In this document: in pieces, positions 15,527 to 64,000 of the stretch
Layout of the letters: every line of letters starts with the position of its first letter
Numbering within the stretch: position 1 is the first letter of the stretch
Position numbers and translations under genes: made by a program
Notes under the pieces: model-generated
The model's input: only the letters and a program-made list of their open reading frames with translations
The model's database searches: none
What the model was told of the DNA's origin: nothing
Assembly (NCBI GenBank): GCA_963678275.1
Contig: OY782765.1
Location: 3,047,700 to 3,111,699 of the forward strand
Direction of reading: 5' to 3'
DNA from: Melioribacteraceae bacterium
GTDB lineage: Bacteria > Bacteroidota > Ignavibacteria > Ignavibacteriales > Melioribacteraceae
Length of the DNA: 64,000 bases

Positions 15527-16996
15527 GTGAAACTTAATGAGACTCACCTCTATGAGGTTTGGAAAAACCAGCAGTTCACAGAAAGGTTAAAGACCGTTTC
15601 AGGAGAGGACATTGACGTCCTTAATGCAGGCACACATAATGAAGATATGGCGGGACCCGATTTCCTGAACGCAAAAATCAGGATTGGTATTCTCACTTAT
15701 GTGGGGGATATAGAAATTGACTGCGAAATCAATGACTGGAAAGGGCATGGTCATAATATTGATGTAAAATATAATAAGGTCATCCTGCATCTTTCTTTCC
15801 GGAATAACCATAACCAGGCTTTTGTTTATACCAACGCGGGCCGTAAGGTTCCAACTATTACACTTTCCCGTTTCCTTCCCGCTACATTCAACAGCCAGTT
15901 TGAACCTCCTCCTCCCAGGGATGTTTCAAATGTTAAACAATTATTACGCTGCCACGAGGCCAACGGACTTGTTACTGCCGTTACAAGAGAAAATTTCATT
16001 CTCAAACTCGGATTCCAGCGTTTTGAAAAAAAATGCAAAAAAATGTACGAGCGGCTCAAAGAGTTAAAATACCTCCGCGATAATAATATTCATGAACCGA
16101 TAATTGGTTATGACCGCAGGGAGGATTTTGATTTAATGAACTACTCTCATGCTGATTTCCAGGATAAAGAGATCTGGCAGCAGCTTTTTTATGAATCGAT
16201 ATTTGAAGCGCTTGGTTACTCAAAAAATAAAAACATTATGCTCGAACTCGCTCATAACGCCGATATAAGTTTCATTAAATCTCTCGGGCATGATGATGAA
16301 TTCCTCGAAAGGGTTGAATCCGCCCTGTTTCATATTAGCGGACTTCTAAGCGAAAATCCCCAAAAAAATGAAATTGATGATGAACAATATGTTTCTAAAC
16401 TCCGTTCGCATTGGGATCACATAAAAAGAATATATAACGCCAAATATTTCGATGAAGACCAGTGGCACTTTTTTAAACTGCGTCCCCAGAATTTCCCTAC
16501 TGTCCGACTCGCGGGGGGGTCCCGTCTGCTTAAATCGATTATTTATGATGATTTTATTAATGAGCTGATCAAAAAAATAGATGAAATCCGAAATCTGAAT
16601 GTCCTGATAAACGTTCTTCGCTCACTTATTATTATCAAATCAGAAGGTTTCTGGCGCACACATTATGTATTTAATAAACATTCTAATGGGGAAATTAAAT
16701 ATTTTGTAGGTGTTTCGCGCGCCGATGAAATGATTATAAATGTTGTTCTTCCCTTTTTCTCGGTTTATTTTGATGTTTTTGGTGAGCAGAATCTGTCGAA
16801 AAAACTTCTGAAGATATATGGCTATTTTAACCAGCGTTCCGAAAACAGGATTGTTCATGATGTTGCTGTTAGTCTGCACATGGAGGATGAAACCAAAAAG
16901 ACTGTCTTTCAGCAGGGAATGATAGAGCTCTTCCGGTCATTCTGCTCAAAAAATAAATGCCTCGAATGTGAAATAGGAAAAATAGTTTTCGGTTAA
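15527..16996 (+). CDS. DUF2851-like protein
   Basis: The N-terminus THLYEVWKNQQF..LKTVSGEDIDVLNAGTHNEDMAGPDFLNAKIRI..VGDIEIDCEINDWKGHGH matches my memory of the Bacteroidota DUF2851 signature. The start is GTG. Confidence 0.7.
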   Translation: MKLNETHLYEVWKNQQFTERLKTVSGEDIDVLNAGTHNEDMAGPDFLNAKIRIGILTYVGDIEIDCEINDWKGHGHNIDVKYNKVILHLSFRNNHNQAFVYTNAGRKVPTITLSRFLPATFNSQFEPPPPRDVSNVKQLLRCHEANGLVTAVTRENFILKLGFQRFEKKCKKMYERLKELKYLRDNNIHEPIIGYDRREDFDLMNYSHADFQDKEIWQQLFYESIFEALGYSKNKNIMLELAHNADISFIKSLGHDDEFLERVESALFHISGLLSENPQKNEIDDEQYVSKLRSHWDHIKRIYNAKYFDEDQWHFFKLRPQNFPTVRLAGGSRLLKSIIYDDFINELIKKIDEIRNLNVLINVLRSLIIIKSEGFWRTHYVFNKHSNGEIKYFVGVSRADEMIINVVLPFFSVYFDVFGEQNLSKKLLKIYGYFNQRSENRIVHDVAVSLHMEDETKKTVFQQGMIELFRSFCSKNKCLECEIGKIVFG

Positions 16997-17396
16997 AAAA
17001 GACTTTGCGCTCCGCTGAATAAGCTATAAAAGAGGATAAGAACATAAATGGAGGAATCACATTCCCCGGTTTAAGTTATCGTCGGGCTATATTATCTTTT
17101 CCCCGTCAGATGATATGTTATATAAACCTGGCAAGACTCCTGATAAAAGAGTTACCCGGGTAAATTCCGCATAGAGGAAAATCCATTGCTGCCAGCCTGT
17201 CCCCACATATATTATTCATTATAATTAGTTTAACACAAATTCTCAGGACTTATCCCGACATCCTGCGCAATAAATCCGGTAACAGAGAAAAATTGGGAAA
17301 CGACCGGTGTTATTCCCGAAATTATTGTTCCTCGTGATTTGCATTGGATACCGCGATTGTACCGGCCAAAATTGCGGGAAAAGAATTTGCGGGAAA

Positions 17397-17957
17397 AATA
17401 ATACAGAGCTCCTGACATCACGTATATTGAAATACAACTATTTTATCATTTTCTTTCATTAAATGACAAAATAATGACAGTAGGAATTTTTCGTTATCCT
17501 CTCTCAATATCGTTCTTATCTTTTAAAGCGACCTCAAAAAAATAAGCGTTAAAAAAATCAAATGAACGGAGCGTTAAAAAAGGAAAGCTGTTTGAGGCAC
17601 ATGTCTTTTTATGTGCCGAGTTCTTTCATTTTAGCGGAGAGAATTGATTTTTAGCTTATTTTTTTGCAGTCTTGACTTTTTTTGCCTGCTCGCCGCAGGA
17701 GAGTTACTTTTTGTGTCAAGACAAAAAGTAAGAGCATCTCTTATAAAATATATTTGGTAAGATTAATGACAATTCCCATTGATTCTCGCTTTACCAGCTG
17801 AGGAAAATTTCAAATTATTTCACGCAAAGGAAACTTATAAACGCAATTCTTTTTAACAGAATTTCTAATGCCAGTCGCATACGTATATAAGCAACAAAAA
17901 ATCTATGTTGTTTTATTTCAATACATTATGTTTTTGATGTCTGGAGTCCTGTATTAT
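17397..17957. mobile_element. MITE-like non-autonomous element, copy 1 (~550 bp, terminal inverted repeats)
   Basis: The left end is AATAATACAGAGCTCCTGACATCA. The reverse complement of the right end is AATAATACAGGACTCCAGACATCA. The element is collinear with the copy at 37310-37870, has no ORF, and has internal perfect hairpins at 17596-17617 and 17704-17731. Confidence 0.7.
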
Positions 17958-18516
17958 TGTATTAAAACGCATGGCCATTATTCTAATCCTGTTTTTTCAG
18001 CGAAAATCAGCGAAATCCGCGGGAAATAATGCCCTGGTTAAAAAGGCAATATGGTTCAAATTATTGAGGACCCGCAATTGCTGCTAAGATTAATAGATTA
18101 AAGAATAAGGTTCTTTGTTTTTTAAAAGAGAAATTTACGTATCAATAAAACCGTTTTACGAATAGTTTTTAAGCTCATGGAATATTTATCAATTGTCTTT
18201 TTAATTGTACATTACTAATTGTTAATTGAAATTTTGCAATTTTGCTTGGAATTTAACTTCATACGGAGTTTTCCGGCCGAGCCTGAGTCAGGCTATTTAA
18301 ATATTCCCGATCTTGCATTAATAACTCACTCCCCGGCCCCCTCTACGTCACGGCGCTCCCTTCCACTTAAAACTATTTGACTTTGATTATTGAGAAATTT
18401 ATTTTTATCAGGACACAGTTAAAATTACTGTAGAATACTAAAACAATTGGCAGATCTTACTCTCCCGAAAATTACCCGCCTCCTGATCAAAACTAAATAT
18501 TTAAAGAGGAAATGTT

Positions 18517-20415
18517 ATGGCTGAAATGACAAGTTTTATCAGTCCGGCAATAACACGTCGGCCTGTGGAAGTAATAATCTGGGTTTTAACCGGACTTAGC
18601 CCTGCCCAAAAGAGCAACGCTTTGGATGAGATCAGAAGCGCTTTACAAACCTGGGAAGATGTTGAAACCTCACATCTCAAATTTACCGTTAAAGAAATAA
18701 TTGAGCAGGATGAAAGACCTGATATCGAAGATCATCAGCTTTTGTTGAAATGTGGCCCCGCGGACAAAATAACAAGCGGCTCGGCTCAATTCCCCTATGG
18801 TGGTAATCCTGGAGAATGGTATGGTGTTGCCGCGGACAATGACCGAGTTAACATAAAGAAAACCGCGGTTCATGAGATCGGGCATACAATCGGACTTCAT
18901 CACTCAACCATAAGTGAATATTTTGAAAAAGAATATCGCCCTGTTATGCACTATAATAAAGAACATTCAGAAAATTATCCCACTATGGATGATAAAATCG
19001 GCCTTTCGCTTCTCTACCCTGATCCCGATGAACCTTTAAACTCGGTCGGTGGCACAATCAGAGGCAGGTTGGTAATGAAAAGCTCCGGAGTTCCGGTTTC
19101 AGGTGTAAATATTGTTGCCGTGGATGTATATAACGGTAGTCCGGTTTATGCTCACTTTTCCGGACCAAGAACATCACAAATGAATATCCAGGATGAAGGG
19201 GAGTTCATCCTGTCCGGTCTTCCTCCTTCAAAATATAAACTAAAAATACTTGATGGTAACAGCTATCATGGCGGAATGACAGGGATACGAAATATTGCCG
19301 AAGGAGAAAATTATAACAGATTGAGAAAAGGTTACCAGGCAGATAATTTTGATGAATTTGAAATTGGTAATTACAATATCGAAACAGGAGATTTCCGAGA
19401 TCTGGGTGATATCAATATTGATATCAAAAATATGAGCATCGATAAAATGTTTCACGGCGTTTTCCCTGAAAAATATAATTCTTTTGTTCCGGCAAATATT
19501 GAACTGCCCAATGCCAAACTTAATGAACCTTATGAACACTGGCTGCATATCTCGGGTGGTTTGAGAAATATTTCTGTAACAAGTAAAGGCAAACCTTTAG
19601 GTATTAAAGTCGAAATTGCCGGTGATCAGCGGGTCAAAAATGTCGGCATTCACGGCGCTCACTATGTCAGGATACATGGCACGCCTGAATACTCAGGTTT
19701 TCATACAATCGAGATCAAACTTACCGACAGCGCCGGAAAATTTAAATACTTCCATTTTAATCTCGCGATAGAGCCCCTTCCCGCTAAAGAACTGGTAGCC
19801 GAATATCATTTTAACCGCGATGGTCATGATTACAGCAACAATAACAGACACGCGATCTGTTTCGGGCGGTTTACAGAAAATCACAAGGGAGAAGCCAGGA
19901 AAGCGCTAAAACTATTTGGTATAAATGATATGGCATTTCCAATTTTTGAAAAAGGATTTGATCTGAAAGATTTTACGATAGCTGTTATACTCAAACTCGA
20001 TAAACTCCGCGACAAAAAAGAATTTATTTTCTCCAAAGGATATCGTTATGGAAATTACAGCGTCTATCGTGAAGAAAAAGGAGAACGATATGCAGGTTAT
20101 GCGATGATTGGCCGGCAAAAACATAACACAACAGTTACCTGGAGAAGAAAAATCTCCAATTCTCCTCTCCCGGAAAATGAATTCTTTTCACTTATTCTCA
20201 GACTTGAAGATGATATTTTAAAATCTTACATAAATGGTGAACTCGAAAAAACCATCAGGAATGTTCCTCCGCCGAGGTTTAATGATTACACTTTTATGAT
20301 GGGAGCCGGTGGAATAACAGGTCTCTCCGGTTTTATGAAAGGGATAATTGATGATGTTTGGGTTTATAATTACGCCCTGGGTGAAACGGAAATCGAACAG
20401 TTGGGTAAGCTGTAA
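18517..20415 (+). CDS. Metzincin-type zinc metalloprotease fused to a LamG/concanavalin-like domain
   Basis: The HEIGHTIGLHH (HExxHxxGxxH) motif is present, with a carboxypeptidase-regulatory-like beta segment in the middle. The C-terminus FMKGIIDDVWVYNYALGETEIEQL is typical of LamG (Laminin_G_3) domains. Confidence 0.85.
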   Translation: MAEMTSFISPAITRRPVEVIIWVLTGLSPAQKSNALDEIRSALQTWEDVETSHLKFTVKEIIEQDERPDIEDHQLLLKCGPADKITSGSAQFPYGGNPGEWYGVAADNDRVNIKKTAVHEIGHTIGLHHSTISEYFEKEYRPVMHYNKEHSENYPTMDDKIGLSLLYPDPDEPLNSVGGTIRGRLVMKSSGVPVSGVNIVAVDVYNGSPVYAHFSGPRTSQMNIQDEGEFILSGLPPSKYKLKILDGNSYHGGMTGIRNIAEGENYNRLRKGYQADNFDEFEIGNYNIETGDFRDLGDINIDIKNMSIDKMFHGVFPEKYNSFVPANIELPNAKLNEPYEHWLHISGGLRNISVTSKGKPLGIKVEIAGDQRVKNVGIHGAHYVRIHGTPEYSGFHTIEIKLTDSAGKFKYFHFNLAIEPLPAKELVAEYHFNRDGHDYSNNNRHAICFGRFTENHKGEARKALKLFGINDMAFPIFEKGFDLKDFTIAVILKLDKLRDKKEFIFSKGYRYGNYSVYREEKGERYAGYAMIGRQKHNTTVTWRRKISNSPLPENEFFSLILRLEDDILKSYINGELEKTIRNVPPPRFNDYTFMMGAGGITGLSGFMKGIIDDVWVYNYALGETEIEQLGKL

Positions 20416-34373: not shown

Positions 34374-35214
34374 CAGGATATTATTTATTTATCTTTAATT
34401 GGATATAATAACCTCTCTAAAATTCTTCAATAATGAAAAATCAGAAATCCCCTCCCTTTAAGATGTTAAATGGAGGATGGAAGCTCTGCTGTCAAATTAA
34501 GCCATCAAAAAGCCCCCGAACGCTTTAATCAATAGAAAATGACATCGGGATTGAATGGATAAATCCCAAATAATCTCTCGTACTCGTTCACGTAATCGCA
34601 CTTCGTTCTCGTCTTTTCAAAACGCTCAGGTTATTCTGGAACGAGGAGGACTACGAGTACCGCTGCGCCCCCCAAAAAGAATGTTTCATAAGAACGAAAA
34701 GATATTTGCACAATTAATGTCAATAAGAGGTATTTTTTTACCGTTCCCTTTCGGGGGCGTAGAAGAGATTTTCGCTTAGCTTGACAGCATTGAGATGGGG
34801 TGATCTACCCTGAGTTGGAATTAATCCGGAGAGAAGTCTGGTTATTTCACCCCCTGAATGACAGATATTTCACGTAATTATAACTCTGTTACCTGGAAGG
34901 TTAAAAAATCAGGAATGAGTTTTATTTTAGCTTTTTTGTGAGATTTTGTGTTTTTATGTTTTAGTGGCTTTTCTTCTCCCTGGATATGTGTAATCAGCGT
35001 AATCAGAAAAATCCGCGGTCCTCTTTTTCATTATTCATTATTAATTATTAATTATTAATTGAATTCCTGTCATTATGTGTTTTTTAGCGCGGCATCCAAA
35101 ACTCAGATACATAAAATTACTCTGAAATAAATATATCTTTTTACTTTCACAAAAAAGATTTGGATAATATAATAAAACCATATAGTTTTGTCCTTATTTT
35201 TTGGAGTGATATTA

Positions 35215-35496: not shown

Positions 35497-36717
35497 TTAT
35501 TTTCTGCCATCGCGTACCCATTCCATGACATTCATCGGAGGCCGTTCATTTTCGAGTTCACCGGCCATAAAACGCATATAGGGATCAATATTTCTGAAAA
35601 AGAATTTGTAACCCTCACATAAATAATTCAGGCCCTCCTCCCCCGATGGAGTCTTTTTGGACCTGTGCTTCGGACATTCACCATTGCACGCGAATCGGTA
35701 TTCGCAATCAAGACAATATTTTGGAAGACGATCATATTTATCAGCTCCAAATTTTATCTGCTTATCTGAGTCGACCATCTCCTTCATGGAATCCTCCATT
35801 ATGTTACCCAGTTTGTGCTCCGGATAAACATAATGATCGCATGAATAAAGGTCCCCGTTATGTTCCATCACCAGTCCCTGCCCGCATTTTTCCCTGAATA
35901 CGCAAAGATTGGGGTTTCTCCCTGTCCACGCCTCAAGAGCCACGTCAAATAAATTCACAAAAACAGCGCCGACATCATTTCTAACCCACTCCTGGAAAAT
36001 ATTCCATAGGAAGCGGCCATATTGAAGCGGCTCAACCGACCACTTTGTAACCAGCGCGGCATCCTTATAATCCTGTGCAACCAGGCTGACCGGATAATCC
36101 CCCTGAATGGTGGCGCGCCTTTCAACAATCGGGATAAACTGCATATATCTGCTGCCGGTATTCTTCAGGAAATTATAAACCTCAACCGCCCGGTGTGAAC
36201 TGTATTTTGTTACACAGGTCAGGGTATTAAATTCAACCGCGTAATGTTTTAAAAGATCCAGCCCCTTCATAACCTTTTCAAAAGTCGGCTTTCCCCCCTT
36301 TAATACTCTGTAACGGTCATGGACCTTTTGAGGTCCGTCAACTGATAGTCCGATAAGAAAATTGTTATCCTTAAAGAACCGGCACCATTTATCATCAATC
36401 AGCAGTCCGTTAGTCTGAAATGAATTTATGATTCTTTTTCCATTAGCGTATTTTTTCTGAAGATTAACCGCCTCTTCAAAAAAATCGAGCCCGAGAAGTG
36501 TCGGCTCCCCCCCCTGCCATGTAAATGAAATTACAGGCACAGCCTGGGTATTGATATACTCTTTTATAAATTTTTCGAGAACATCATGTTTCATTCCCCA
36601 GTCAGTTTTATTGCCATAAAGATTTTCCTTTTCCAGGTAATAACAATATTCGCAATCAAGATTGCAGAGAGGCCCTGTAGGCTTAACCATCACATGAAAT
36701 GCCAGAGAGTTATACAT
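35497..36717 (-). CDS. Anaerobic sulfatase-maturating enzyme-like radical SAM/SPASM protein
   Basis: HVMVKPTGPLCNLDCEYCYY is the anSME N-terminal signature. C-terminal Cys clusters CLDCEYRFACNGECPKH form a SPASM domain. Confidence 0.85.
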   Translation of the reverse strand: MYNSLAFHVMVKPTGPLCNLDCEYCYYLEKENLYGNKTDWGMKHDVLEKFIKEYINTQAVPVISFTWQGGEPTLLGLDFFEEAVNLQKKYANGKRIINSFQTNGLLIDDKWCRFFKDNNFLIGLSVDGPQKVHDRYRVLKGGKPTFEKVMKGLDLLKHYAVEFNTLTCVTKYSSHRAVEVYNFLKNTGSRYMQFIPIVERRATIQGDYPVSLVAQDYKDAALVTKWSVEPLQYGRFLWNIFQEWVRNDVGAVFVNLFDVALEAWTGRNPNLCVFREKCGQGLVMEHNGDLYSCDHYVYPEHKLGNIMEDSMKEMVDSDKQIKFGADKYDRLPKYCLDCEYRFACNGECPKHRSKKTPSGEEGLNYLCEGYKFFFRNIDPYMRFMAGELENERPPMNVMEWVRDGRK

Positions 36718-37309
36718 TTTATTCCTGTTTTTAAAAAATTATGAAAAAAGATATTTTCATGTATCTAAGCTGCCAACACCTAAAAGGAATAATAAAAAAA
36801 ATAATCATATTTTTAATCATAAACTGGACAAGCCGGAAAAAAAATTGAATCCGAAGAAAGAATCGTACTCGTCTTTACCAAAACGCTCAGGTTATTCGAG
36901 AACGAGGACGATTACGAGTACCTGTTCCATGAGTACGATAAAATTTTGCCATTTTGCGTTGAATTTGACTCCTTACGGAGTAATCATAAACTTTCAAGCC
37001 AGAATTTCAATATTGTCCTGATTACTCCTCTTTTGTGACACTACCACGGTATATCCTCCCCCGTCAATGAAGAAGAACGCTTCATTGCCACCCCCTCCAA
37101 AGGTAATGGCACTAACATAGTGAAACGAAAGAAATATTGCGCGAATATAGTTATCCCCCAACATCAATATTTCTTGTGAAATGTTTTTCTAATATCAATT
37201 AAATAGAATGATAACATTAATTGGCTAATCTATTGTTATTAAATTCTTTACAACCTCACCCCAACCCCTCTCCTTATCAAGGAGAGGGGCTTTAAAAGTC
37301 CCTCCCCTT

Positions 37310-37870
37310 ACTACAGGGCTCCTGACATCACGTATATTGAAATGCAACTATTTTATCATCTTCTTCCATTAACTGGCAGAATAATAACAGTAAGAATATT
37401 TCGTTATCCTCTCTCAATATTGTTTTTATCTTTTAAAGCGACCTCAATAAAATAAGCGTTAAAAAAATCAAATGAACGGAGCGTTAAAAAAGGAAAGCTG
37501 TTTGAGGCACATGTCCTTTTATGTGCCGAGTTCTTTCATTTTAGCGAAGAGAATTGATTTTTAGCTTATTTTATTGCAGTCTTGACTTTTTTTGCCTGCT
37601 CGCCGCAGGAGAGTTACTTTTTGTGTCAAGACAAAAAGTAAGGGCATATTTTATGAAATATATTTGATAAGATTAATGACAATCCCCATTGGTTCTCGCT
37701 TTACCAGCTGAGGTAAATTTCAAATTATTTCACGCAAAGGGAACTTATAAACGCAATTCTTTCTAACAGAATTTCTAATAACAGTCGCATACGTATATAC
37801 GCAATAAAAAATCTATGTTGTTTTATTTCAATACTTTATGTTTCTGATGTCAGGAGGCCTGTACTAAGGG
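37310..37870. mobile_element. MITE-like element, copy 2, inserted in the loop of a G-rich palindromic hairpin
   Basis: It is collinear with 17397-17957, roughly 90-95% identical by eye with no obvious indels. The ends are CTTACTACAGGGCTCCTGACATCA and, reverse-complemented, CTTAGTACAGGCCTCCTGACATCA. The flanks TCCCTCCCCTTA and TAAGGGGAGGGA are mutually complementary. Confidence 0.7.
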
Positions 37871-38060
37871 GAGGGATTTAGGGTGGGGTCTGAATACCAG
37901 GAAAACACTAAAGATACTAAATTTTCCCCAGGCAAAGCCTGAGGAAAACGCCCTATCGGGGAAAACTATTTATTCAATAAGAAGTTAAACTCTACGCAAA
38001 TTGGTAAGAAATTTATCAACAAGTAGAAAGTTTTATTGCCAGGTATAAGTTTCGTAGTTA

Positions 38061-38494
38061 CTCGAGGTGTGTCCTCCCCCGTCAATGAAGAAGAGCGCTT
38101 CATTGCCACCCCCTCCGGCGGGGGACATTCTGATTACTTGGATTTGTCGATAAATATCCCCCTTCGGAGGGGGTGGATTCAAAGTGTTTTTCTTTGAAGA
38201 CGGGGGAGGACTATCCTTGAGCTAACCGATAACTTTTCTTTTTCTGACTCTTTCAGCTTATGGATTTTGAATCGCGGCTTGATTATCGGCAACATGTTAT
38301 TAGCGGGCTTTTTGACAAATTTTGCTCCTTGGATTATCCTCAACATGTTGGCGTTAGTGTGGTGATAAGAGCCTATATTTTTGCTCTATCTTGGTGCCAT
38401 TACCTCCAAAGGGGGATAAATGACTTGATATCCCGCTTTGGAGGGTGTGGCCTCCGGTCGTCTTTTGCCGGAGGTCGGGGGAGGACTCACCTCG
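38061..38494. repeat. Nested inverted-repeat element (C5/G5-rich arms)
   Basis: GTCCTCCCCCGTC..CCACCCCCTCC (38071-38116) is complementary to GGAGGGGGTGG..GACGGGGGAGGAC (38167-38211). The outer arm CTCGAGGTGTGTCCTCCCCC (38061-38080) pairs with GGGGGAGGACTCACCTCGA (38476-38494). A direct copy of the left arm lies at 37054-37098. Confidence 0.6.
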
Positions 38495-38696
38495 AATAAC
38501 CATAAAACTTTTGCCTGACAGTAAAACTATATACTTGTTAGAAAAACTATGCCATTTTGCGTAGAATTTATCTTCTTATGGAATATTAAGCCATTTAAAG
38601 CGAGAAAATATTTATTAATACGCATAAAAAAGCCCCATCAGATTCTCACATTCTTTTAAATCCAACGGGGCTGAAAAATTCACAATATTTTATTTG

Positions 38697-39293
38697 TTAA
38701 TTTATATTTCCTTTCAATCGCGATATCTCATCACGAAGTTTTGCGGCCCTTTCATAATCTTCCTTTTCTATCGCTTCTCTCAGGTTATCCTGCAGATTCG
38801 CGATGCGCGTTTCGGGAGAAGGTTTCGCGGCGCCCTGCGCTGTTTCTTCCTCTTCCGGTTCGGCTGAGCTTTCCTCATCTTCATTAGCGGGAAGAAAAGA
38901 TGCCGCGGCCATAACTTTTTCATCAACAAAAATCGGCGCCCGGCTTCTGACAGCCACAGCGATCGCGTCACTGGGACGTGAATCAATCTGGTTGGTCATT
39001 GATGAAACTTCGAGGACAATCTTAGCGTAAAAAGTATTATCCTTAAGTTCATCAATAATTATTTCATTAACAGTCGCCCCCAGGTTATCAATAAGGTTTT
39101 TCATCAGATCGTGCGTAAGAGGCCGGGGCGGTTTTATCCCCTCAAGCTCAAGCGCGATCGACTGAGCCTCAAAAGCTCCGATAATTATCGGCAGTCTCCT
39201 GACTCCGTACGTTTCCTTTAGAAGCAACGCATAAGCCCCTCCGGCGGAAGGGCTTGATGAAAGACCTAATATTTCTACTTCAACTTTATCCAA
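38697..39293 (-). CDS. Bifunctional nuclease (BFN/DUF151) domain protein with C-terminal UVR motif
   Basis: The motif LPIIIGAFEAQSIALELEG..PRPLTHDL is present. An acidic linker follows. The C-terminus EDYERAAKLRDEISRLK is UvrB/C-like. Confidence 0.8.
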   Translation of the reverse strand: MDKVEVEILGLSSSPSAGGAYALLLKETYGVRRLPIIIGAFEAQSIALELEGIKPPRPLTHDLMKNLIDNLGATVNEIIIDELKDNTFYAKIVLEVSSMTNQIDSRPSDAIAVAVRSRAPIFVDEKVMAAASFLPANEDEESSAEPEEEETAQGAAKPSPETRIANLQDNLREAIEKEDYERAAKLRDEISRLKGNIN

Positions 39294-55845: not shown

Positions 55846-56457
55846 TCACAGTATCTCTTCAGGCGAAGTAACGCACATATCCAAATCCCTAATGATCCCG
55901 TCTTCAAGGCTGTATATCCATCCATGCACCGCGAGTTCCTGTCCCCTCTTCCAGGCATTTTGCACAATTGTTGTCCGGCATACATTAATCACCTGTTCCC
56001 TGATATTAAACTCACAAAGCATATTTCTTCTTTCTTCAGCGTTTTCACCTTTCCCTATCTTTTCCTCATGTAACCGGTAAACATCTCTTATATGCTGAAG
56101 CCAGTTATCAATCAGTCCGTGATCATTATCCTCCATCGCCGCGGCCACTCCTCCGCAGCCATAATGCCCGCATACTATTATGTGTTTTACTTTCAGCGCT
56201 TCAACGGCATACTGGATAACCGAAAGTATATTCAAATCTGTATGAGACACCACATTCGCGATATTGCGGTGGACAAAAATCTCCCCCGGCGGCAGATCAA
56301 CTATCTGGTTGGCAGGAACACGGCTGTCCGAACATCCTATCCAAAGATACTCCGGATTCTGCTGTTTTGAGAGTTCCTTAAAAAATCCGGGGTTCTTAAC
56401 TTCAATTTCTTTTGCCCATTTTTTATTTTGCTCAAAAAGATTCTTCAATACTCTCAT
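55846..56457 (-). CDS. Beta-class carbonic anhydrase
   Basis: The motifs CSDSRVP and HYGCGGV are present. Length is 203 aa. Confidence 0.88.
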   Translation of the reverse strand: MRVLKNLFEQNKKWAKEIEVKNPGFFKELSKQQNPEYLWIGCSDSRVPANQIVDLPPGEIFVHRNIANVVSHTDLNILSVIQYAVEALKVKHIIVCGHYGCGGVAAAMEDNDHGLIDNWLQHIRDVYRLHEEKIGKGENAEERRNMLCEFNIREQVINVCRTTIVQNAWKRGQELAVHGWIYSLEDGIIRDLDMCVTSPEEIL

Positions 56458-57101
56458 AGCGCGCTCGCTTTCATTTTTATTAAAGATTACGCCGCAACTG
56501 AATAAAAAGTTTCATGAATATCAAAAAATATCGCGCGATATTTCCATTACCCCTGAATGCCGGAAACAGATAACCAGGAAAATCTTTTTGATTTCAGCAA
56601 CAGAGATCGCGGGATTATCTCCCTATATCGAACTGAAGTTAATTTTTGTAATTATTCCATAAGAAGTTAAATTCAGCGCATAATGGCAAAGTTTTTTCGT
56701 ACACATGGAACATCCCCCTGGGGGCGAAGCGGCACTCGTAATCGTCCTCGTTCTAGAATAACCTGGGCATTTTGAAAAGACGAGTAAGAAGCACGATTAC
56801 GAGAACGAGTACGATTCATTTATTTGGATTTGTTTTCCGGCTCTGCCGGTTTATTTATTAAGGCCGGGTAAGTTTAAAGATAGGCCTGCATTTTTGAATA
56901 AAGGAAAACCTCCTCCCCAAAAGAGACTGCTCTCAGCTTAATGATTTTTTACCGTCCCCGGAGGGGGCGAAGACGAATAACCACGGGCAGCCTTCGAAGA
57001 CGGCGGCCCGTGGAGGAGACCAGAGAAAAAACGACACCTCCGAATGGGAGCGAACCGGTTCTTATGTTGACAGCATTGCCCCAAAAGGAGAAGGCTTATA
57101 A

Positions 57102-57686
57102 TTATTTTGGTGTCGGGTAATTGCCCTCAACACAAATAATAAAGCTCACACAAAGAGAAGGCTGGCAAAGCGGCAATGCCTGGCCGCCTCCGGCAGATTC
57201 AACTTGAACGGAATAATCTCCCGATTTTGTGATTGTCACATCAACTTCACCCATATCCGCATTAAAAGAATTATAATAAACAGGAGCGCCCGACGGGGCC
57301 GGCCCGAAATAGCGGTTCTCAGGGTCTGTGTTTCCTGCTCCCATGCCCTTAAAACATCTTTGCACGGCTGTGCCTGAATATGACACTTGCGTAAGAGTGG
57401 GAGTATGAGTATGAGGGTAGATTTCCGATATTTCCAGTTTCCTTTCCTCATCGCCAAAATATCTGCCCAGGTAGGCGAGACCATTTGCTATAACCCCGAG
57501 GGGAGATCTTCCTCGTAAATCGGGAAGCTTGAAGTTAGTTCTTCCATCTCCGCCAAAAGTATTGGAGAGGATCGAAAAAAGGACCCCTTGCTGCGATATA
57601 TTTAATGTTTGCCCGGCGCATATCATCCATTTTTCGGGAGCGTAATTGCCGGCGAACATCCTGATTTCACCTATAGTTCCTTCCAT
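57102..57686 (-). CDS. Phage tail collar domain protein (MdpB-like), paralogue 3 of 3
   Basis: The sequence runs MEGTIGEIRMFAGNYAPEKWMICAGQ..FGGDGRTNFKLPDLRGRSP..PHTHTP..QPSLCVSFIICVEGNYP. GGAGGAA lies upstream of the ATG at 57686. Confidence 0.85.
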   Translation of the reverse strand: MEGTIGEIRMFAGNYAPEKWMICAGQTLNISQQGVLFSILSNTFGGDGRTNFKLPDLRGRSPLGVIANGLAYLGRYFGDEERKLEISEIYPHTHTPTLTQVSYSGTAVQRCFKGMGAGNTDPENRYFGPAPSGAPVYYNSFNADMGEVDVTITKSGDYSVQVESAGGGQALPLCQPSLCVSFIICVEGNYPTPK

Positions 57687-57767
57687 AATTCCTCCGAATA
57701 TCACATCTTATTTTATTTATTTTCATTTTCGACTATATTTATTGATAATTATACCTTTTTCCCTGCG

Positions 57768-58361
57768 TTAACTCCTGTGCGGCCAGTTTCCATAAACGCA
57801 GATAATAAAATTGATAACCAGTGAAGGCTGCAAAAGAGAAATCATTTCACCCTCGCCCGATTCGTCCAGTTTCAGGCTGTATTCGCCCGATTTGCTCAGC
57901 TCAACATTCAGTGGCGCCATATCAGCGCTGTCGGTATCATAATATATTGGAACGGCAGAGGGCGCCGGACCGGGATAACGATTTTCCGGATCGGTATCGC
58001 CTGTTCCAAATCCTTTATAGCACTTCTGAATCGCTTTTCCTGAATAAGCCGGCCCGGTAATAGTTGTTTCATGTGTATGTGGCGGGAAGTTTTTTAAAGG
58101 AATAAATATTTCCTCCCATCCCTTAATTTCTCCAAGGTGGTTATCCGAAAGTCCCGCTCCGTGGCCCCATCCGTAAGGAACCCGTCCCCTGAAATCGGGC
58201 AGTTTAAAATTAACATATCCGTCTCCGCCATAAGTAGTGCCGAGAAGGGCAAATAGTTTGGGATTTTGGACAATCTGAACCTCCTGTCCATCGCAAAAGG
58301 CCCAGTTGCGTGGAGCATAGTCCCCGCTAAACATTCTTATTTCTCCGTAATATCCTTCCAT
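57768..58361 (-). CDS. Phage tail collar domain protein (MdpB-like), paralogue 2 of 3
   Basis: The sequence runs MEGYYGEIRMFSGDYAPRNWAFCDGQ..YGGDGYVNFKLPDFRGRVP..PPHTHET..QPSLVINFIICVYGNWP. GGAGGAAAA lies upstream of the ATG. Confidence 0.85.
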   Translation of the reverse strand: MEGYYGEIRMFSGDYAPRNWAFCDGQEVQIVQNPKLFALLGTTYGGDGYVNFKLPDFRGRVPYGWGHGAGLSDNHLGEIKGWEEIFIPLKNFPPHTHETTITGPAYSGKAIQKCYKGFGTGDTDPENRYPGPAPSAVPIYYDTDSADMAPLNVELSKSGEYSLKLDESGEGEMISLLQPSLVINFIICVYGNWPHRS

Positions 58362-58513
58362 TTTTCCTCCGGATTTAGCTGTTTATTGTTTCCATAATTT
58401 TCTTATTATTTTTTTCTGATATTATTTTTCTTTTGCTTTTCTGCCTTTAAGCTTACGATTGGAATAACGGAATTTATTCATCCTCTAGTATCGGCTTAAA
58501 TTATTTTAACGGA

Positions 58514-59107
58514 TTATGGACGCGGCGGCCAGTTGCCCTCAACACAAATAATAAAATTGAGCGCGAGGGCAGGCTGAAAAGGTCCAAATTCAGAAGATGA
58601 TTCGGTATAATCCACATCAGTTTTATAATCGCCGGTTTTAGTTACCTGGATATCGACGGCACCCATAACGGCGTTTTCCGTATCATAATATACCGGCGCG
58701 ACTGATGGAGCCGGTCCGGGATACCGGTTTTCAGGATCTGTAAATCCGGGGCCAAATCCTTTAAAACACCTCTGGCTGGCCGAGCCGCTGTAGGTTGGCG
58801 CCGAAACAGTAGCTGTATGCGTGTGGGGAGGAATCTGATCCCAGCTAATCCTTTCCGAAAAGTTCCCGAAACTGTGACCGAGCACCCTTGGGGATAATCC
58901 TGTTCCAGTGCCCTGGCCGACAGGTATACGCCAACTGAAATCAGGCAGACAAAAGAAATTATGTCCATCACCGCCAAATCGGGTGCCTATTAAAGAAAAC
59001 AGCTTCGAATGCTTATTAACGTGCAGCGACTGCCCTCTGCAGAACATCCAGTCACCTGGCGCGAACTTGCCCGCAAAGATTCTTATTTCACCATAATATC
59101 CTTCCAT
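58514..59107 (-). CDS. Phage tail collar domain protein (MdpB-like), paralogue 1 of 3
   Basis: The sequence runs MEGYYGEIRIFAGKFAPGDWMFCRGQ..FGGDGHNFFCLPDFSWRIP..PPHTHTA..QPALALNFIICVEGNWP. GGAGGAAAT lies upstream of the ATG. Confidence 0.85.
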   Translation of the reverse strand: MEGYYGEIRIFAGKFAPGDWMFCRGQSLHVNKHSKLFSLIGTRFGGDGHNFFCLPDFSWRIPVGQGTGTGLSPRVLGHSFGNFSERISWDQIPPHTHTATVSAPTYSGSASQRCFKGFGPGFTDPENRYPGPAPSVAPVYYDTENAVMGAVDIQVTKTGDYKTDVDYTESSSEFGPFQPALALNFIICVEGNWPPRP

Positions 59108-59143
59108 ATTTCCTCCGGAATTTGTTTTACTGTTTTTGGGTTT

Positions 59144-59503
59144 TTATTTTGAGGTTTCTTCGGCTAATTGAAAAGAATAAAACCGTGTAAGAGTTACATC
59201 GCCATTTCCATCCGCTTTTTTCTGCGCGGGATTATTCAGGGTTACGATCAAATTACCTTCACTCTCATAGCGGTGAATGCGCTCATCCCCCTGGCAGCTA
59301 AAAAGTACGCCCCGTGTTTTGGTGCCTGGTCCGCCTATATGCTGCTTACCTATGTCACGCAAATTCAGACTTTCGAGTCCGGGAATAGTAAGAATAATAT
59401 TGCCAGGAGTTTCTGTAACTTTAAATGTCCGGCCTGCTTCCAGTTCTTTTTCCCCAGCGGGAATTGTGTAAACATAGTTATTTATTACTGTCAGAACGTA
59501 CAT
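59144..59503 (-). CDS. Hypothetical 119-aa protein, first gene of the tail-collar operon
   Basis: It lies 36 nt upstream of the first collar gene on the same strand and has a non-repetitive, beta-rich-looking sequence. I see no signal peptide and recognise no family. Confidence 0.5.
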   Translation of the reverse strand: MYVLTVINNYVYTIPAGEKELEAGRTFKVTETPGNIILTIPGLESLNLRDIGKQHIGGPGTKTRGVLFSCQGDERIHRYESEGNLIVTLNNPAQKKADGNGDVTLTRFYSFQLAEETSK

Positions 59504-59740
59504 ATTTTCCCCTGGTTATAGCGCTGGTTTTATATTGACACAAGGCTTCCGGTCTAAATCAATTCCTGTGTTTTCACACAAACATATTCCCCGGATACAT
59601 CAGTCTGCAAAATGCAACGTTTATAATAGTATATTTCTCGTGTTAATTCAATAATTAAATTATAAAACGCGTTGATTATAAGTATCTTTAATATATAAGG
59701 TATTATTTGAATACGATTTTGAATAATCAGGAATATTAAA

Positions 59741-62110
59741 ATAGGAGAGGACACTGAGTACGATTAAATCCATAAATCCTTAAATCATGGTTCAGACATT
59801 TTTCCGTGATTATCAGCGAAATCCGCGGGAAATAATACCCTGGTAAAAAAGGCAATAAGGTCAAAAAGTTGTAGGGGAATTCCCTGGCTACTAAAGACTC
59901 CCGATTTGGTAAAATCCCAAATTTCAAATTTGACAGTAACAATATAGCAGGGGTGATAACTTCACGAAAAAATTCAATGTTTCGAGAGCGGGATCCCCTC
60001 CCCTTAAGATTTTAAGGGGAGGACGGGAGGGGTTTGATCTACCTTATGACGTCCATAATCCGATAAGAAGTCAAAATATTCTTTAAAAAAAACATCTGGC
60101 TTTTTCTCTCAAATTTATTCTTGTTGCCTGGAAGGTTAAAAAAAAATCAAAAATAAGGTTTTTCTCTGCGTGAAAAGAATCGATTTCGATTTGCATTTCA
60201 AGGGCAGTTGCTCCTCCTCTAAATCCTCCAAATCTTCGCATTCCTGTTCAGATATTTTCCGCGGCAATCAGCGAAATCCGCGGGAAATATAAAGGCAAAA
60301 GGTCTAAAAGTTGTGGAGGAATTCCCTGGCTACTAAGGACCCCCGATTTGGGAAAACCCCAAATTTCAAATTTGACAGCAACAATATAGCAGGGGTGATA
60401 ACTTCACGAAAAAATTCAATGTTTCGAGAGCGGGATCCCCTCCCCTTAAGATTTTAAGGGGAGGACGGGTGGGGTTTGATCTACCTTGAGATGTTTATAA
60501 TCCGATGAGAAGTCAAAATATTCGTAAAAAAAAGACTGGCTTTTTCTCTCAAATATATTCTTGTTGCCTGGAAAGTTAAAAATCAAAAATATGGTTTTTC
60601 TCTGCGTGAAAAGAATCGATTTCGATTTGCATTTCGCGGCAACTTTAGTTCCTGTTAATCTTTGTAATCTTGTACAGATATCTTTTCCGCGACAATCCGC
60701 TAAATATGCGGGAATTAATCCCCGCATGAATGAGGTTATAAAGTTTATTTTTTAGGTGATTATACCCGGCTACTAAGGAACCCCAATTTGGAATAACACA
60801 CAATTTCAAAATTAACAGCAACAATTTAAGTAATTACAATCTATCTAAAACTCTTCAAAGATGAGAGAGCGGAATCCCCTCCCCTTAAGATTTTAAGGGG
60901 AGGACGGGAGGGGTTTGATCTACCTTGAGATGTCTGTAATCCTATGAGAAGTCAAAATATTTGCAAAAAAATAACTGGCTTTTTCTCTCAAATATATTCT
61001 TGTTGCCTGGAAGGTTAAAAAATCAAAAATAAGGTTTTTCTCTGCGTGAAAAGAATCGATTTCGATTTGCATTTCAAGGGCAGTTGCTCCTCCTCTAAAT
61101 CCTCCAAATCTTCGCATTCCTGTTCAGATATTTTCCGTGATTATCAGCGAAGTCCGCGGGAATTAATCCCCGGATGAATGAGGTTATAAGGTTTGTTTTT
61201 TAGATGATTATCCCCGGCTACTAAGGAACCTCAATTTGGAAAAACACGCAATTTCAAAATTAACAGCAACAATTTAAGTAATTACAATCTATCTAAAACT
61301 CTTCAAAGATGAGAGATCGGAATCCCCTCCCCTTAAGATTTTAAGGGGAGGACGGGAGGGGTTTGATCTACCTTGAGATGTTTATAACCCGATAAGAAGT
61401 CAAAATATTCTTTAAAAAAAAACATCTGGCTTTTTCTCTCAAATTTATTCTTGTTGCCTGGAAGGTTAAAAAAAAATCAAAAATAAGGTTTTTCTCTGCG
61501 TGAAAAGAATCGATTTCGATTTGCATTTCAAGGGCAGTTGCTCCTCCTCTAAATCCTCCAAATCTTCGCATTCCTGTTCAGATATTTTCCGCGGCAATCA
61601 GCGAAATCCGCGGGAAATATAAAGGCAAAAGGTCTAAAAGTTGTGGAGGAATTCCCTGTCTACTAAGGACCCCCGATTTGGGAAAACCCCAAATTTCAAA
61701 TTTGACAGCAACAATATTGCAGGAGTGATAACTTCACGAAAAAATTCAATGTTTCGAGAGCGGAATCCCCTCCCCTTAAGATTTTAAGGGGAGGACGGGA
61801 GGGGTTTGATCTACCTTGAGATGTCTGTAATCCGATAAGAAGTCAAAATATTCTAAAAAAAAAAAAATATCTGGCTTTTTCTCTCAGATATATTCTTGTT
61901 GCCTGGAACGTCAAAAAATATCAAAAATATGGTTTTTCTCTGCGTGAGAAGAATCGATTTCGATTTGCATTTCGAGGGCAGTTGCTCCTCCTCTAAATCC
62001 TCCAAATCTTTGCATTCCTGTTCAGATATTTTCCGCGGCAATCAGCGAAATCCGCGTAATCAGAAAAATCCGCGGTCCTCTTTCAATTGTTAATTGTTAA
62101 TTGAAATTTT
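59741..62110. repeat. Non-coding array of ~5.4 tandem ~440-bp units, each starting with the hairpin CCCCTCCCCTTAAGATTTTAAGGGGAGG
   Basis: The hairpin recurs at 59995, 60437, 60876, 61324 and 61767, a spacing of 442/439/448/443 nt. Units are mosaics of two alternative middle modules and two alternative right-hand modules. Segments 60061-60436 and 61390-61766 differ by 4 substitutions and one A-run length by manual alignment. Confidence 0.9.
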
Positions 62111-62270
62111 GCCATTATGCGCAGGATTTGACTGTAAACGAGATACTCTTACTCTTGCTCAGATTTTTTAAAGACGATTCCTGATTTCTTGACATATATC
62201 AATTGAAAACGGAGATTCAAACTATATCTTTTGCCCCTGAATTTAAACAAACAAGGAATAAGGTAATCAG

Positions 62271-62588
62271 ATGCGTTATCAGAATGAAAAAGGAATAATC
62301 TTCCGTTTAACCGGTTATGCTAAAAACGGACACCCTGAAGATATTGATTATCTGATGTCGCTGCTTAATTCCGAAACAACATTTGCGATGACCCGTTTTG
62401 TCGACTACGCCCTGAGTCTTGTGGAAAATATAGAGGGCCTTAAAAGACTTGAATTTTATCTCTTTAACGGCACACAAATCCAGCGGAACTACTCCGGTAT
62501 GTGTCTTAACCGAAGGGGTGAATGGAAGATAGTGAAAAAAGCATGGAAGATGGGACTGATAGATGAACGCCAGTTTTACGCGAGATAA
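62271..62588 (+). CDS. Hypothetical protein (105 aa)
   Basis: This is a clean ORF with non-repetitive sequence. I recognise no family. Confidence 0.45.
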   Translation: MRYQNEKGIIFRLTGYAKNGHPEDIDYLMSLLNSETTFAMTRFVDYALSLVENIEGLKRLEFYLFNGTQIQRNYSGMCLNRRGEWKIVKKAWKMGLIDERQFYAR

Positions 62589-62628
62589 TAGAAGGGGAGC
62601 GGTCGGAACGCTCCCCAAAAATTCAGAA

Positions 62629-64000
62629 TCATTTAGGTTCCCAGATAATCTCTCCTCTCTTTGTAAAATAAAAATATATTTTATCCGGGAGAAATCCGCT
62701 TCCCTGAACTTCATAATATCCCTGGGAAATACCATCAGTAAACATAGATGGCCTGTTATCAAGCATCGGCTCAATCAGCCAATTGCCTGACTTATCAATC
62801 AATCCCCATACTCCGCCTTTTTTTACCCAGCAAACACCTTCACTGAATGTGGAAACATCTTCAAAAGGTCCATTAATAACCTTTTCACCATTTACATCAA
62901 TAAAGTAATATCCTCCCTCACAGGAAAGAGCCGATCCCTCACAAGTTTCCGAAACTCCAATCAATCCCTCGGAATAAAGAAATCCACAGCCTTTAAATTT
63001 CGGGGGAGTTACTCTCTTCCCTTTTTCATTCAGTATTCCAAACATTTCATTTTTTGAATAAATGATTCTGTTATCATAAAATTTTGCCCTTGTGAATCCC
63101 ACCTGAAGTTTCTCTTCAAATCGAATTTTGACATTTCCACTTTTATCAATCATATGATGTTTCCCATCTTTTTCTACTATAGCCCTTCCCTCTATAAAGT
63201 CATATGCCTGATCAAATTGTGGAGTGACAGCCCAGTTACCCTTTTTATCAAGATATCCATATTTTCCATCTTCTACTTTAACAGCCGCGGCAAGTCCCTC
63301 ACTAAATCTTTTTACAAGATAATAATCGGGAGGAATTATTATTTTCCCCTCTCTGTTTATAAAGCCCGTTTTTTCATTCACCCTTATTCCTGTAAGCCCG
63401 TCGTGAAAATCAGAGCCAAATAAAGGAGAATAATATTTAGCGGGAATAACTTCAATTCCCTTTTTGTTTATATATCCTTTTTTCGCGTCAAAAATATCCG
63501 AACCTGGTGGTGAAAATCCGCATAATCCTTCCGAAAAATAATAAATTGTTTCCCATTTGGGCTGAATAACCATATCACCAAGAAGATTAATAAATCCCCA
63601 TTTTTCACCAACCTTAACCCCCATCAATCCTTCCTTAAAAATACCTTCGCTTTCATCTTTTACTTCATCATATTTAATAGGAATAACGAGATTTCCAGCC
63701 GCGTCGACAAACCCGGTTTTACCATTCTTTTTCGCGGTCAGCAGCCTGGGGAATTTGTCTCCACTTTTTTCTTCAAAAATCTTTTTTCCTGAATATACAG
63801 GATTATTGTGAAGTTTGATATAAATAGTTTTTATTACCCCATGATTATAAACTGTTAATTCATTAACAGTCGACGAACTGTTATTAAGTTTATTTTGGAT
63901 TGTTGAAGCATTTTCACCATATAACGATTTATCTGCCAGTTTAAGCGCCAGCGCCCCTGCGTCAAGTTCATACCCCTTATCTCCCCAGATTGAAGTATTT
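62629..64000 (-). CDS. WG-repeat (KWG-like) protein, N-terminus beyond the window edge
   Basis: Motifs recur of the form (K)WG(F/L)I(N/D)..G..VI(Q/P)P..Y: EKWGFINLLGDMVIQPKW, GKYGYLDKKGNWAVTPQF, GVWGLIDKSGNWLIEP. The same frame stays open from 63628 to nt 64000 (..GKTGFVDAAGNLVIPIKYDEV..), so the TTG at 63627 is not the real start. Confidence 0.8.
   Translation of the reverse strand, partial: NTSIWGDKGYELDAGALALKLADKSLYGENASTIQNKLNNSSSTVNELTVYNHGVIKTIYIKLHNNPVYSGKKIFEEKSGDKFPRLLTAKKNGKTGFVDAAGNLVIPIKYDEVKDESEGIFKEGLMGVKVGEKWGFINLLGDMVIQPKWETIYYFSEGLCGFSPPGSDIFDAKKGYINKKGIEVIPAKYYSPLFGSDFHDGLTGIRVNEKTGFINREGKIIIPPDYYLVKRFSEGLAAAVKVEDGKYGYLDKKGNWAVTPQFDQAYDFIEGRAIVEKDGKHHMIDKSGNVKIRFEEKLQVGFTRAKFYDNRIIYSKNEMFGILNEKGKRVTPPKFKGCGFLYSEGLIGVSETCEGSALSCEGGYYFIDVNGEKVINGPFEDVSTFSEGVCWVKKGGVWGLIDKSGNWLIEPMLDNRPSMFTDGISQGYYEVQGSGFLPDKIYFYFTKRGEIIWEPK

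Follow-up and report, generated by a model that had tools for sequence, protein, structure and literature searches.

The subject of this study is a tandem array of non-coding DNA in a 64,000-nucleotide (nt) stretch of the chromosome of a Melioribacteraceae bacterium (contig OY782765.1, phylum Ignavibacteriota). We call this whole stretch the window, and coordinates are window positions unless prefixed with L; L-numbers denote loci outside the window, and L004, L006, L008 and L010 (the last on MAG contig_3), among others, are loci of a sister metagenome-assembled genome (MAG) that carry the repeated element described below. The array lies between two divergent transcription units, a minus-strand operon that starts with gene 59144-59503 and continues with Collar genes, and a plus-strand gene at 62271-62588. 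Tandem Repeats Finder (TRF) placed it at 59848-62056, with a period of 442, 5.0 copies, 83% matches and a score of 2728. There are five head-to-tail units of 439-448 bp and a leading partial unit, together ~2.3 kb. These results bear out a preliminary description, made from the sequence alone, which had reported a non-coding array of ~440-bp units with these divergent flanks. The edges it gave, 59741 and 62110, need correction, as repeat homology runs from ~59790 to ~62060. The longest open reading frame (ORF) in the array encodes 93 amino acids (aa) and occurs in unit 2 only, and none of the seven ORFs within the array matched Pfam. Nor is the array a CRISPR: instead of 25-40-nt repeats with unique spacers, it has a 442-bp period and "spacers" that are homologous to one another.

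Each full unit carries an exact 26-nt hairpin, CCTCCCCTTAA-GATT-TTAAGGGGAGG (at 59997, 60439, 60878, 61326 and 61769), for which the expectation in shuffled sequence was 0. The hairpin had been assigned to the start of all five full units and of the leading partial unit; it is present in the five and missing from the partial unit (~59790-59996). Likewise, the tail thought to follow every hairpin is found in four units as ACGGGAGGGGTTTGATCT and is replaced in unit 2 by ACGGGTGGGG. A proposed G-quadruplex potential is weak, since only three of the runs GGGG, GG, GGG and GGGG have three or more guanines and the first is paired inside the 11-bp stem. Unit alignment agreed with the described mosaic, in which an alternative middle is seen in unit 2 only and two versions of the right half of the unit, alpha and beta, follow the order alpha (leading partial unit), then alpha-beta-beta-alpha. 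The near-identity of units 1 and 4 was also upheld: they share 432 matches, with 10 mismatches and one gap column (97.7% identity), and positions 60082-60381 and 61412-61711, spaced by 1330 nt, are 99% identical over 300 nt. A recent three-unit (1.33-kb) duplication or conversion, as had been suggested, remains a sound account of this similarity. The remaining unit pairs are 78-90% identical, and divergence between units ranges overall from 2 to 22%. GC content peaks at 0.53-0.55 at the hairpins and drops to 0.25 in between.

Using blastn and nhmmer, we found that each unit is composed of one ~300-nt dispersed element, which we call X, and ~140 nt of promoter-upstream spacer. X extends from …GGCTACTAAGGA to …CTTGTTGCCTGGAAGG and an A-rich tail that ends in AATAAGGTT, with the hairpin and GGGAGGGGTTTGATCTACCTTGAG in between. 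Short modules designated C, H, U, d-core and T accompany it. The features of the locus are as follows.

59144-59503, minus strand: gene with which the divergent operon starts; its 119-aa product has no Pfam family.
59783-59802 and 59812-59831: H module and C box, respectively, at the left edge of the array (module map).
59790-59996, plus strand: leading partial unit, with the end of a spacer (H and C modules), pre-X sequence and the left part (alpha type) of X copy 1; identified by homology to internal units; no hairpin.
59850-60162, plus strand: X copy 1, alpha left half, hairpin 59997-60022 (nhmmer E=1.8e-90).
60163-60295, plus strand: spacer between X copies (post-X sequence, C box ATCAGCGAAATCCGCGGGAA, pre-X sequence), from the unit alignment.
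60296-60598, plus strand: X copy 2, alpha left half, hairpin 60439-60464, core variant GGGTGGGG (nhmmer E=3.1e-94).
60732-61038, plus strand: X copy 3, beta left half, hairpin 60878-60903 (nhmmer E=2.1e-91).
61180-61492, plus strand: X copy 4, beta left half, hairpin 61326-61351 (nhmmer E=6e-89).
61626-61936, plus strand: X copy 5, alpha left half, hairpin 61769-61794 (nhmmer E=2.2e-91).
60599-60731, 61039-61179, 61493-61625 and 61937-62060, plus strand: equivalent spacers, that of unit 2 being the divergent "middle" variant.
60267, 61143, 61597 and 62041: C boxes (module map).
62041-62080, plus strand: right edge of the array, where the last C box overlaps a U module (two AATCAG-N4-ATCCGCG boxes, 18 nt apart; TRF period 18 at 62040-62074).
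62108-62172, plus strand: d-core (promoter-like TTTGCCATTATGCGCAGGATTTGAC) and T leader, directed at gene 62271.
62271-62588, plus strand: downstream gene, 105 aa, no Pfam family; its orthologue in the sister MAG is 96% identical.

Both ends of the array lie in the same 18-20-bp box, AATCAGCGAAATCCGCG (H/C at 59783-59831, C/U at 62041-62080), which is the footprint expected of unequal crossing-over between short direct repeats.

A point beyond the view of the preliminary description is that the unit is assembled from modules that are dispersed in both genomes and are not specific to this locus. Elsewhere in the window, nhmmer detected the following copies of X.

12664-12952, plus strand: single dispersed X, beta-like, between two U/d-core modules (E=2e-70).
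34402-34923, plus strand: dispersed X, left-truncated and split at 34484-34792, after a degenerate hairpin, by a 309-nt MITE (miniature inverted-repeat transposable element) that we call M.

Among 185,579 species genomes, each represented by one assembly, the exact hairpin occurs in a single assembly, the Melioribacteraceae MAG CAXXGF01, which has 12 copies at 11 loci and X in both orientations. The window and the MAG together contain 19 hairpin-bearing copies. The stem is identical in 18 of these, and all 19 are intergenic, with none overlapping a long ORF. One of the MAG loci, L006, contains a second tandem pair of X with a spacing of 356 bp. An exact-pattern scan of JGI metagenomes for the hairpin and its flank gave no matches, as did a scan of viral contigs and a blastn comparison of the full unit with plasmids and phages; a JGI scan with GGTTTGATCTACCTTGAG returned 12 matches, all by chance and in unrelated contexts.

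Comparison of 14 aligned copies revealed that a 56-nt core (56 columns), made up of the hairpin and an oriented 3′ flank, ACGGGAGGGGTTTGATCTACCTTGAG, is 89-100% identical between pairs, while the arms of X vary, with pairwise identities of 40-97% on the left and 50-96% on the right. Left and right types combine independently. Alpha and beta left halves are each part of a dispersed subfamily and are joined to at least three right-half types; copy L006b, for example, combines a beta left half with a right half that matches those of alpha copies at 96%. X-less joints, GCTACTAAGG|TTAAAAAA, occur at 12328 and in L002, L006 and L007, with a more degenerate one near 18075, and could be empty sites or deletions. 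Two other possible roles for X were discarded: a small peptide translated from the TTG ORF after the hairpin, whose length and sequence are not conserved, and an invertible promoter, as no copy has its inner segment inverted.

We compared the array with its orthologous locus in the sister genome, L010. Positions 1-2360 of L010 are 93.4% identical to window positions 57404-59772, and positions 3313-5312 are 94.2% identical to 62016-64000. Between these anchors, L010 has 0.95 kb, corresponding to ~1.5 units (one full and one shortened) plus a MITE, versus 2.24 kb and five units in the window. The sister genome's single full unit has its conserved core split by MITE M. Thus, copy number changed after the two lineages split. 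Since units 1 and 4 differ by 2.3%, compared to 6-7% in the orthologous flanks, the 1.33-kb three-unit duplication is younger than that split. The preliminary description had named free variation and absence from close relatives among the signs of a neutral satellite; with a unit number that is reduced in the sister genome and the MITE-split core, this outcome largely applies, as far as these two features go. Separately, L010:2360-2480 contains 120 nt (a d-core remnant and a T module, flanked by the direct repeat AAATCC) that are absent at window position 59772; either the window lineage lost them or the MAG gained them by insertion.

Long repeats that are partly near-identical, such as units 1 and 4, raise the question of whether dispersed copies were wrongly joined during assembly. 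We consider such an artefact very unlikely. The units differ at many positions and form an ordered mosaic, the source contig is 6,885,115 bp long, implying long-read assembly, and the independently assembled sister genome has a tandem 1.5-unit structure at the same locus and a tandem X pair at another.

With moderate confidence, we interpret the array as a composite non-coding segment that was amplified in tandem in a lineage-specific manner, the segment itself being made of interspersed mosaic repeat modules. In this scenario, the first duplication would have occurred by unequal crossing-over between two AATCAGCGAAATCCGCG boxes on either side of one X that lay upstream of the gene 62271 d module. 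Later unequal exchange between whole units would have raised their number from ~1.5, the state of the sister genome, to five and would have included the recent 1.33-kb three-unit duplication, while exchange with dispersed X copies would account for the alpha/beta mosaic. The array looks like a young, recombination-driven amplification and not like a dedicated RNA or regulatory device, and its sequence suggests that, as such, it probably has no dedicated function. The 56-nt core of X is a different matter. From its conservation, it is probably a site on DNA at which a sequence-specific protein (a recombinase, transposase or nuclease) binds, and it would double as a junction in recombination and a landing place for a MITE. 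A protein-binding role for the core and for the AATCCGCG boxes is possible, and it would be a property of the dispersed element rather than of the array.

Evidence that the core is a target comes from MITE M. M is 173 or 309 nt long (copies of 154-173 nt and a 309-nt long form), with the terminal inverted repeat (TIR) CACTGCTGTCAACTTAAG and 9-bp target-site duplications (TSDs), such as GGACGGGAG in L010, GGATGGGAG in L008 and CCCCAAAAG at an unrelated site in the window (56925-57080). In L004, L008, L010 and at window position 34484, M sits at one position of the core, GGAYGGGAG directly after the hairpin. In-silico excision of M restores X exactly in L008 and L010, and the five window units, which are orthologous to the interrupted L010 unit, all lack M and represent empty sites. 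As M has opposite orientations in L008 and L010, these are independent insertions at one site. Four of about eight M copies (window 34484-34792 and 56925-57080; L008:6369-6541, L010:2747-2919, L004:7705-, L009:3700-3860) are at the X-hairpin position, in both orientations; the other copies are at unrelated sites with their own 9-bp duplications. No autonomous insertion sequence of this family was found. Repeated insertion at the same core position indicates that the hairpin flank is a preferred landing site, and the presence of M within the L010 core indicates that core disruption is tolerated at the array locus. The TIRs and target duplications identify the post-hairpin insertion as a MITE rather than a group I or II intron or an additional RNA domain.

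M is a textbook MITE, a class that is reviewed in PMC10969869 and whose members can carry internal minisatellites, as in Porphyromonas gingivalis (PMC4596501). X resembles MITEs in being small, non-coding, dispersed, intergenic and often near promoters. Unlike MITEs, it lacks TIRs: its ends, …GGCTACTAAGGA and …TTGTTGCCTGGAAGG, are not inverted, and the sole long-range inverted repeat is internal and 9 bp long. It also lacks copy-specific target duplications, as one imperfect direct repeat, CTAAGG / GGAAGG, flanks all copies. We therefore rejected X as a MITE, for a conserved center with free ends is the opposite of MITE structure.

The interior of the long form of M (34560-34740) is 80-88% identical to a module that consists of an inverted repeat and a d-core (IRd + d-core), with matches at 56694-56831, 36863-36922, L008:5855-5982, L006:6919-7010 and L002:5993-6074. 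Genes with this module upstream include the one for carbonic anhydrase (55846-56457), and from the sequence it seems that a promoter-like module has been carried and spread by a MITE.

A conserved core hit repeatedly by a mobile element, with left and right partners reshuffled among copies, could also be a recombinase site in a cassette array, resembling an integron or the Neisseria intergenic mosaic elements (NIMEs), in which units are gained, lost and swapped at the core rather than by homologous exchange. The GC peaks at the hairpins fit this idea, as the same wave is seen in NIME arrays (PMC1797815). We nonetheless find it distinctly unlikely that the array formed in this way. No transposase or recombinase gene, and no REP-associated tyrosine transposase (RAYT) or Ssn-type nuclease gene, is encoded in the 64-kb window. 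The hairpin has neither the R''/R' boxes of attC sites nor the dRS3 consensus, the array edges are in the C/U boxes and not at the hairpin, and the units are homologous over their full length, for which homologous unequal exchange suffices. An integron, or a cluster of attC sites lacking an integron-integrase (CALIN), was rejected as well: the hairpin arms CCTCCCCTTAA/TTAAGGGGAGG are without RYYYAAC…GTTRRRY boxes, the units are mutually homologous, and the window contains no integrase. ARAGORN identified no tRNA or transfer-messenger RNA (tmRNA), indicating that the X core is not a tRNA-derived att site. Neither a replication origin with DnaA boxes nor parS fits, as the defining motifs are absent and GC skew keeps its sign across the array.

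We considered whether the units could be tandem genes for non-coding RNAs (ncRNAs), or one long leader or ncRNA with five X domains. According to this explanation, X is a clade-specific plus-strand RNA of ~200-300 nt whose ends pair (CAGCAACAA with UUGUUGC-CUG) around the invariant hairpin; transcription would start at upstream d-type promoters or at a promoter in the left part of X, and the array would multiply dosage. Tandem small RNA or promoter units had also been proposed in the preliminary description, and our scans did not support them. Sigma-70-type sites numbered 7, versus 7.2 +/- 3.4 in shuffled sequences, in a scan whose coverage does not extend to the native Ignavibacteriota promoter type, and one terminator-like site was found in 2.8 kb, versus 3.3 in shuffles. 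The site TTAACA-17-TACAAT is present in the two beta units only, and in alpha copies the 5′ strand of the long-range stem is immediately preceded by TTGACA and a TAnnTTTG-like box (CAAATTTG). This placement would suit a promoter for the RNA; however, the candidate boxes are gone in beta units. Neither strand of the invariant hairpin contains a T-run, and no terminator follows X. Searches with Rfam 15 gave no match at the gathering score in the whole window, and at E <= 1 they gave only isrP and a plant small nucleolar RNA (snoRNA) in 59400-62400, neither of which provides a family for X. The isrP match (26.9 bits, against a gathering score of 45) is to a small hairpin on the minus strand of the unit-2 spacer.

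Structure-conservation tests on 14 related sequences from the two genomes gave signals that were better for the plus strand than for the minus strand. For a single X, the z-score of the fold was -1.88 (plus) and -0.17 (minus). The structure conservation index (SCI) was 0.45 (plus) and 0.37 (minus) over the full length, rising to 0.63 and 0.46 in the enclosed part. The RNAalifold consensus comprised a long-range stem, the hairpin and two weak helices. G-U pairs occur in two helices on the plus strand only, and, read from the alignment, a variable stem just 5′ of the hairpin still pairs with different sequences in alpha, beta and L009 copies. Four base pairs have changes on both sides, versus 1.1 +/- 0.9 in shuffles, of which 4 in 500 reached this number; these pairs come from an A-rich/U-rich helix and from the three copies that diverge most and whose alignment is least secure. 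The covariation term was -0.49 kcal/mol. Thus, the covariance analysis of units and dispersed relatives that had been recommended gave some double changes but a weak result overall, and the RNA-structure evidence for X is weak. All 14 base pairs of the hairpin are invariant, which points to recognition of sequence and not of shape.

The genomic setting of X bears on the same question. In every window or MAG copy that has an adjacent d-core, X has the orientation of that d-core, and several loci have a d-core 300-480 nt upstream of X, as would suit an RNA transcribed from d-type promoters. On the other side, orientation relative to the nearest protein genes is mixed, the upstream d-core and T module of L010 are absent from the window, and 4 of the 19 hairpin-bearing copies have a MITE in mid-core. 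Known tandem small RNA genes, NsiR1 of heterocystous cyanobacteria and LhrC1-5 of Listeria, have units of 100-200 bp, each with a promoter and a Rho-independent terminator. The array resembles them in its head-to-tail, intergenic, non-coding units with a hairpin in each, and differs from them in that no promoter or terminator signal was detected per unit. Considering both sides, we regard ncRNA genes as a possible but doubtful explanation for the array.

The modules around X are promoter-like. The d-core motif is TTTGCCATTTTGCG-N2-GAATTTAAC, often preceded by TTAATTG repeats and two AATCCGCG boxes. By the same criterion, it occurs at six other window sites (12495, 18233, 22167, 36945 and 38548 on the plus strand, 56690 on the minus strand), with degenerate versions at ~13092, 32643 and 35066 and an additional reverse-strand match at 37984-38008. 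Seven of the 10 d-cores, including the array copy at 62108 (six of the nine others), lie 150-290 nt upstream of a co-oriented gene, and three face none. A homologue of gene 62271 with 70% identity (L012, L013) has a related motif, CATTTTGCAGAATTATAG, upstream. The d-core is a putative promoter. It would not be a sigma-54 promoter, as the GG-N10-GC geometry is missing, and it is also outside the TTG/TAnnTTTG geometry of Bacteroidota. Across window and MAG loci, the modules recur in the order d-core, T leader, H, X-less joint or X, U/C, d-core, T, gene.

Very similar U, d-core and T modules before unrelated genes, and an IRd + d-core module inside a MITE, are reminiscent of the reused or "mobile" promoters of prokaryotes (PMC3575422). 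This likeness concerns the context of the array; the amplified unit itself has no d-core. Downstream of d-cores lies the T module, in which CTGATTTTTTTAAGACGATACCGAT comes after imperfect repeats of an ACTCNT hexamer (12535-12559, 62148-62172; L001:270, L002:6227, L006:6780, L010:2433); in L006 the module runs on into a (TACCGA)7 microsatellite. The H module includes a short ORF of 8-19 aa with a constant start, MVQTFF…, and a varying continuation (59788-59850, 12604-12630, L006:6715 on the minus strand, L010:2504); as neither length nor sequence is conserved, this ORF is probably not coding.

The U module, with its two C-related boxes 18 nt apart upstream of d-cores, is also found at 12428, 13018, 32569 and 34992. 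At five window sites, a d-core follows ~30-60 nt downstream of this module, and the C box of each unit is a copy of a U box. Together with the position of the array directly upstream of the d-core of gene 62271 and the difference in copy number between the sister genomes, this raises the possibility that the array is a cis-regulatory scaffold or insulator for the divergent operons, with copy number tuning expression. A regulator of d-type promoters could be bound or titrated by the AATCCGCG-type boxes, of which each unit has one and the U module two, or the hairpins could keep transcription of one operon from running into the other. We think such a function unlikely. Elsewhere, X fronts unrelated genes or faces the 3′ ends of convergent genes, the hairpin has no T-run on either strand, the best-conserved part is the X core and not the boxes, and 1.5 units, one of which is disrupted, are enough for the sister genome.

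Several points weigh against our preferred explanation, amplification of a mosaic segment without dedicated function. The strong constraint on the core means that some function or propagation mechanism exists, and the co-orientation of X with adjacent d-cores fits transcription through X. The plus strand has a structure signal, if a weak one, in the four double-change pairs, the SCI of 0.63 versus 0.46 and the z of -1.88 versus -0.17. With at least 12 copies per genome, this is a low-copy family, in contrast to REP or NIME repeats. The recombination mechanism is deduced from sequence comparison, and as two genomes were compared, expansion in the window lineage and contraction in the MAG both fit. 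A tentative proposal, to which we give a rather low probability, is that the core is the site of a new lineage-specific protein (a recombinase, an Ssn-like single-strand nuclease or a transposase), or that X is a new structured RNA of ~250 nt of which the array contains five copies.

The closest analogues of the array appear to be two kinds of mosaic array, the neisserial NIMEs and the enterobacterial bacterial interspersed mosaic elements (BIMEs). Repetitive extragenic palindromes (REPs) are 20-40 nt long, very numerous and tied to RAYT transposases; together with a few linker motifs they form BIMEs, mosaic clusters that are sometimes tandem, with periods of ~100 bp, and that are targets of certain insertion sequences. 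The array has in common with REPs and BIMEs a dispersed intergenic palindrome, mosaic modules, tandem clusters and use as an insertion target. It differs in that X is 300 nt long with a conserved center and variable arms and that the window has no RAYT gene. REP sequences that form REPINs have been modeled as populations (PMC8049555).

In NIME arrays, dRS3 inverted repeats flank RS elements; the arrays are intergenic, vary in repeat number between close relatives and show a GC wave, and a mobile element uses the palindrome as its integration site (PMC1797815). A neisserial palindrome with an oriented, non-palindromic flank is bound by a dedicated nuclease (NTS/SsnA, PMC11893778). Our array has the same architecture: a short, conserved, GC-rich palindrome between AT-richer mosaic spacers that fall into families, an intergenic location, a unit number that differs between relatives, a GC wave, a palindrome that is a mobile-element target, and an oriented non-palindromic flank, for which the cognate protein is here putative. 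The differences are a unit of ~440 bp versus 50-150 bp, an 11-bp stem of other sequence without ATTCCC-N8-GGGAAT, about a dozen copies per genome versus hundreds, units homologous over their full length, and the phylum, Ignavibacteriota. The 12 exact hairpins of the MAG are unrelated in sequence to the GTAG-REP and dRS3 consensus sequences. As consensus, unit size and copy number differ, the array is not a member of the NIME or BIME/REP families.

Large, homogenized, non-coding tandem repeats are uncommon in bacteria, and this one can be traced to mosaic modules and, in our interpretation, unequal recombination. It would extend NIME/BIME-type architecture to Ignavibacteriota, with an unusually long unit and a hairpin core that doubles as a MITE landing site. 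If the core is indeed a recognition site, X arrays would be an independent, large-unit counterpart of neisserial NIME/NTS arrays and would promote recombination and the capture of mobile elements beside particular genes. A striking array may thus be a by-product of repeat dynamics, the object of interest being the dispersed X core and its recognizer. Promoter-like cassettes that lie partly inside MITEs also offer a case study of how regulatory DNA could spread in a 6.9-Mb genome with long intergenic regions.

The surroundings of the array are ordinary chromosome, with genes for ribosomal proteins, H+-pyrophosphatase, electron transfer flavoprotein (ETF), proteins sorted by the type IX secretion system (T9SS) and an AbiE toxin-antitoxin pair. 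Next to gene 59144-59503, on the same strand, are three tandem Collar paralogues (57102-59107, 197-200 aa) with an N-terminal phage tail Collar domain; their DNA is in places 61-70% identical, and the arrangement is the same in the sister MAG. Distant homologues of the 105-aa protein on the other side (56-70% identity) have other contexts and short upstream regions without X.

Intergenic regions in the window can be unusually long (1.5-2.8 kb) and packed with the same repeat modules, as at 11055-13268, 16996-18517, 36717-38697 and 59503-62271, which fits a genome of 6.9 Mb, large for the phylum. A further dispersed, non-coding repeat of 300 nt is present at 17399-17698 and 37309-37608 (94% identity), and L004:3261-3719 matches it at 84%. 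Internal repeats also occur in coding sequence. Two adjacent genes encode a 1474-aa Ser/Thr kinase protein (859-5283) and a 1392-aa protein of five tandem AAA+ modules (5534-9712). The kinase gene contains 42-nt tandem repeats at 910-1107 that encode an acidic, D-rich repeat, and the AAA+ gene, which has FHA and PP2C genes downstream, contains internal repeats of ~825 nt.

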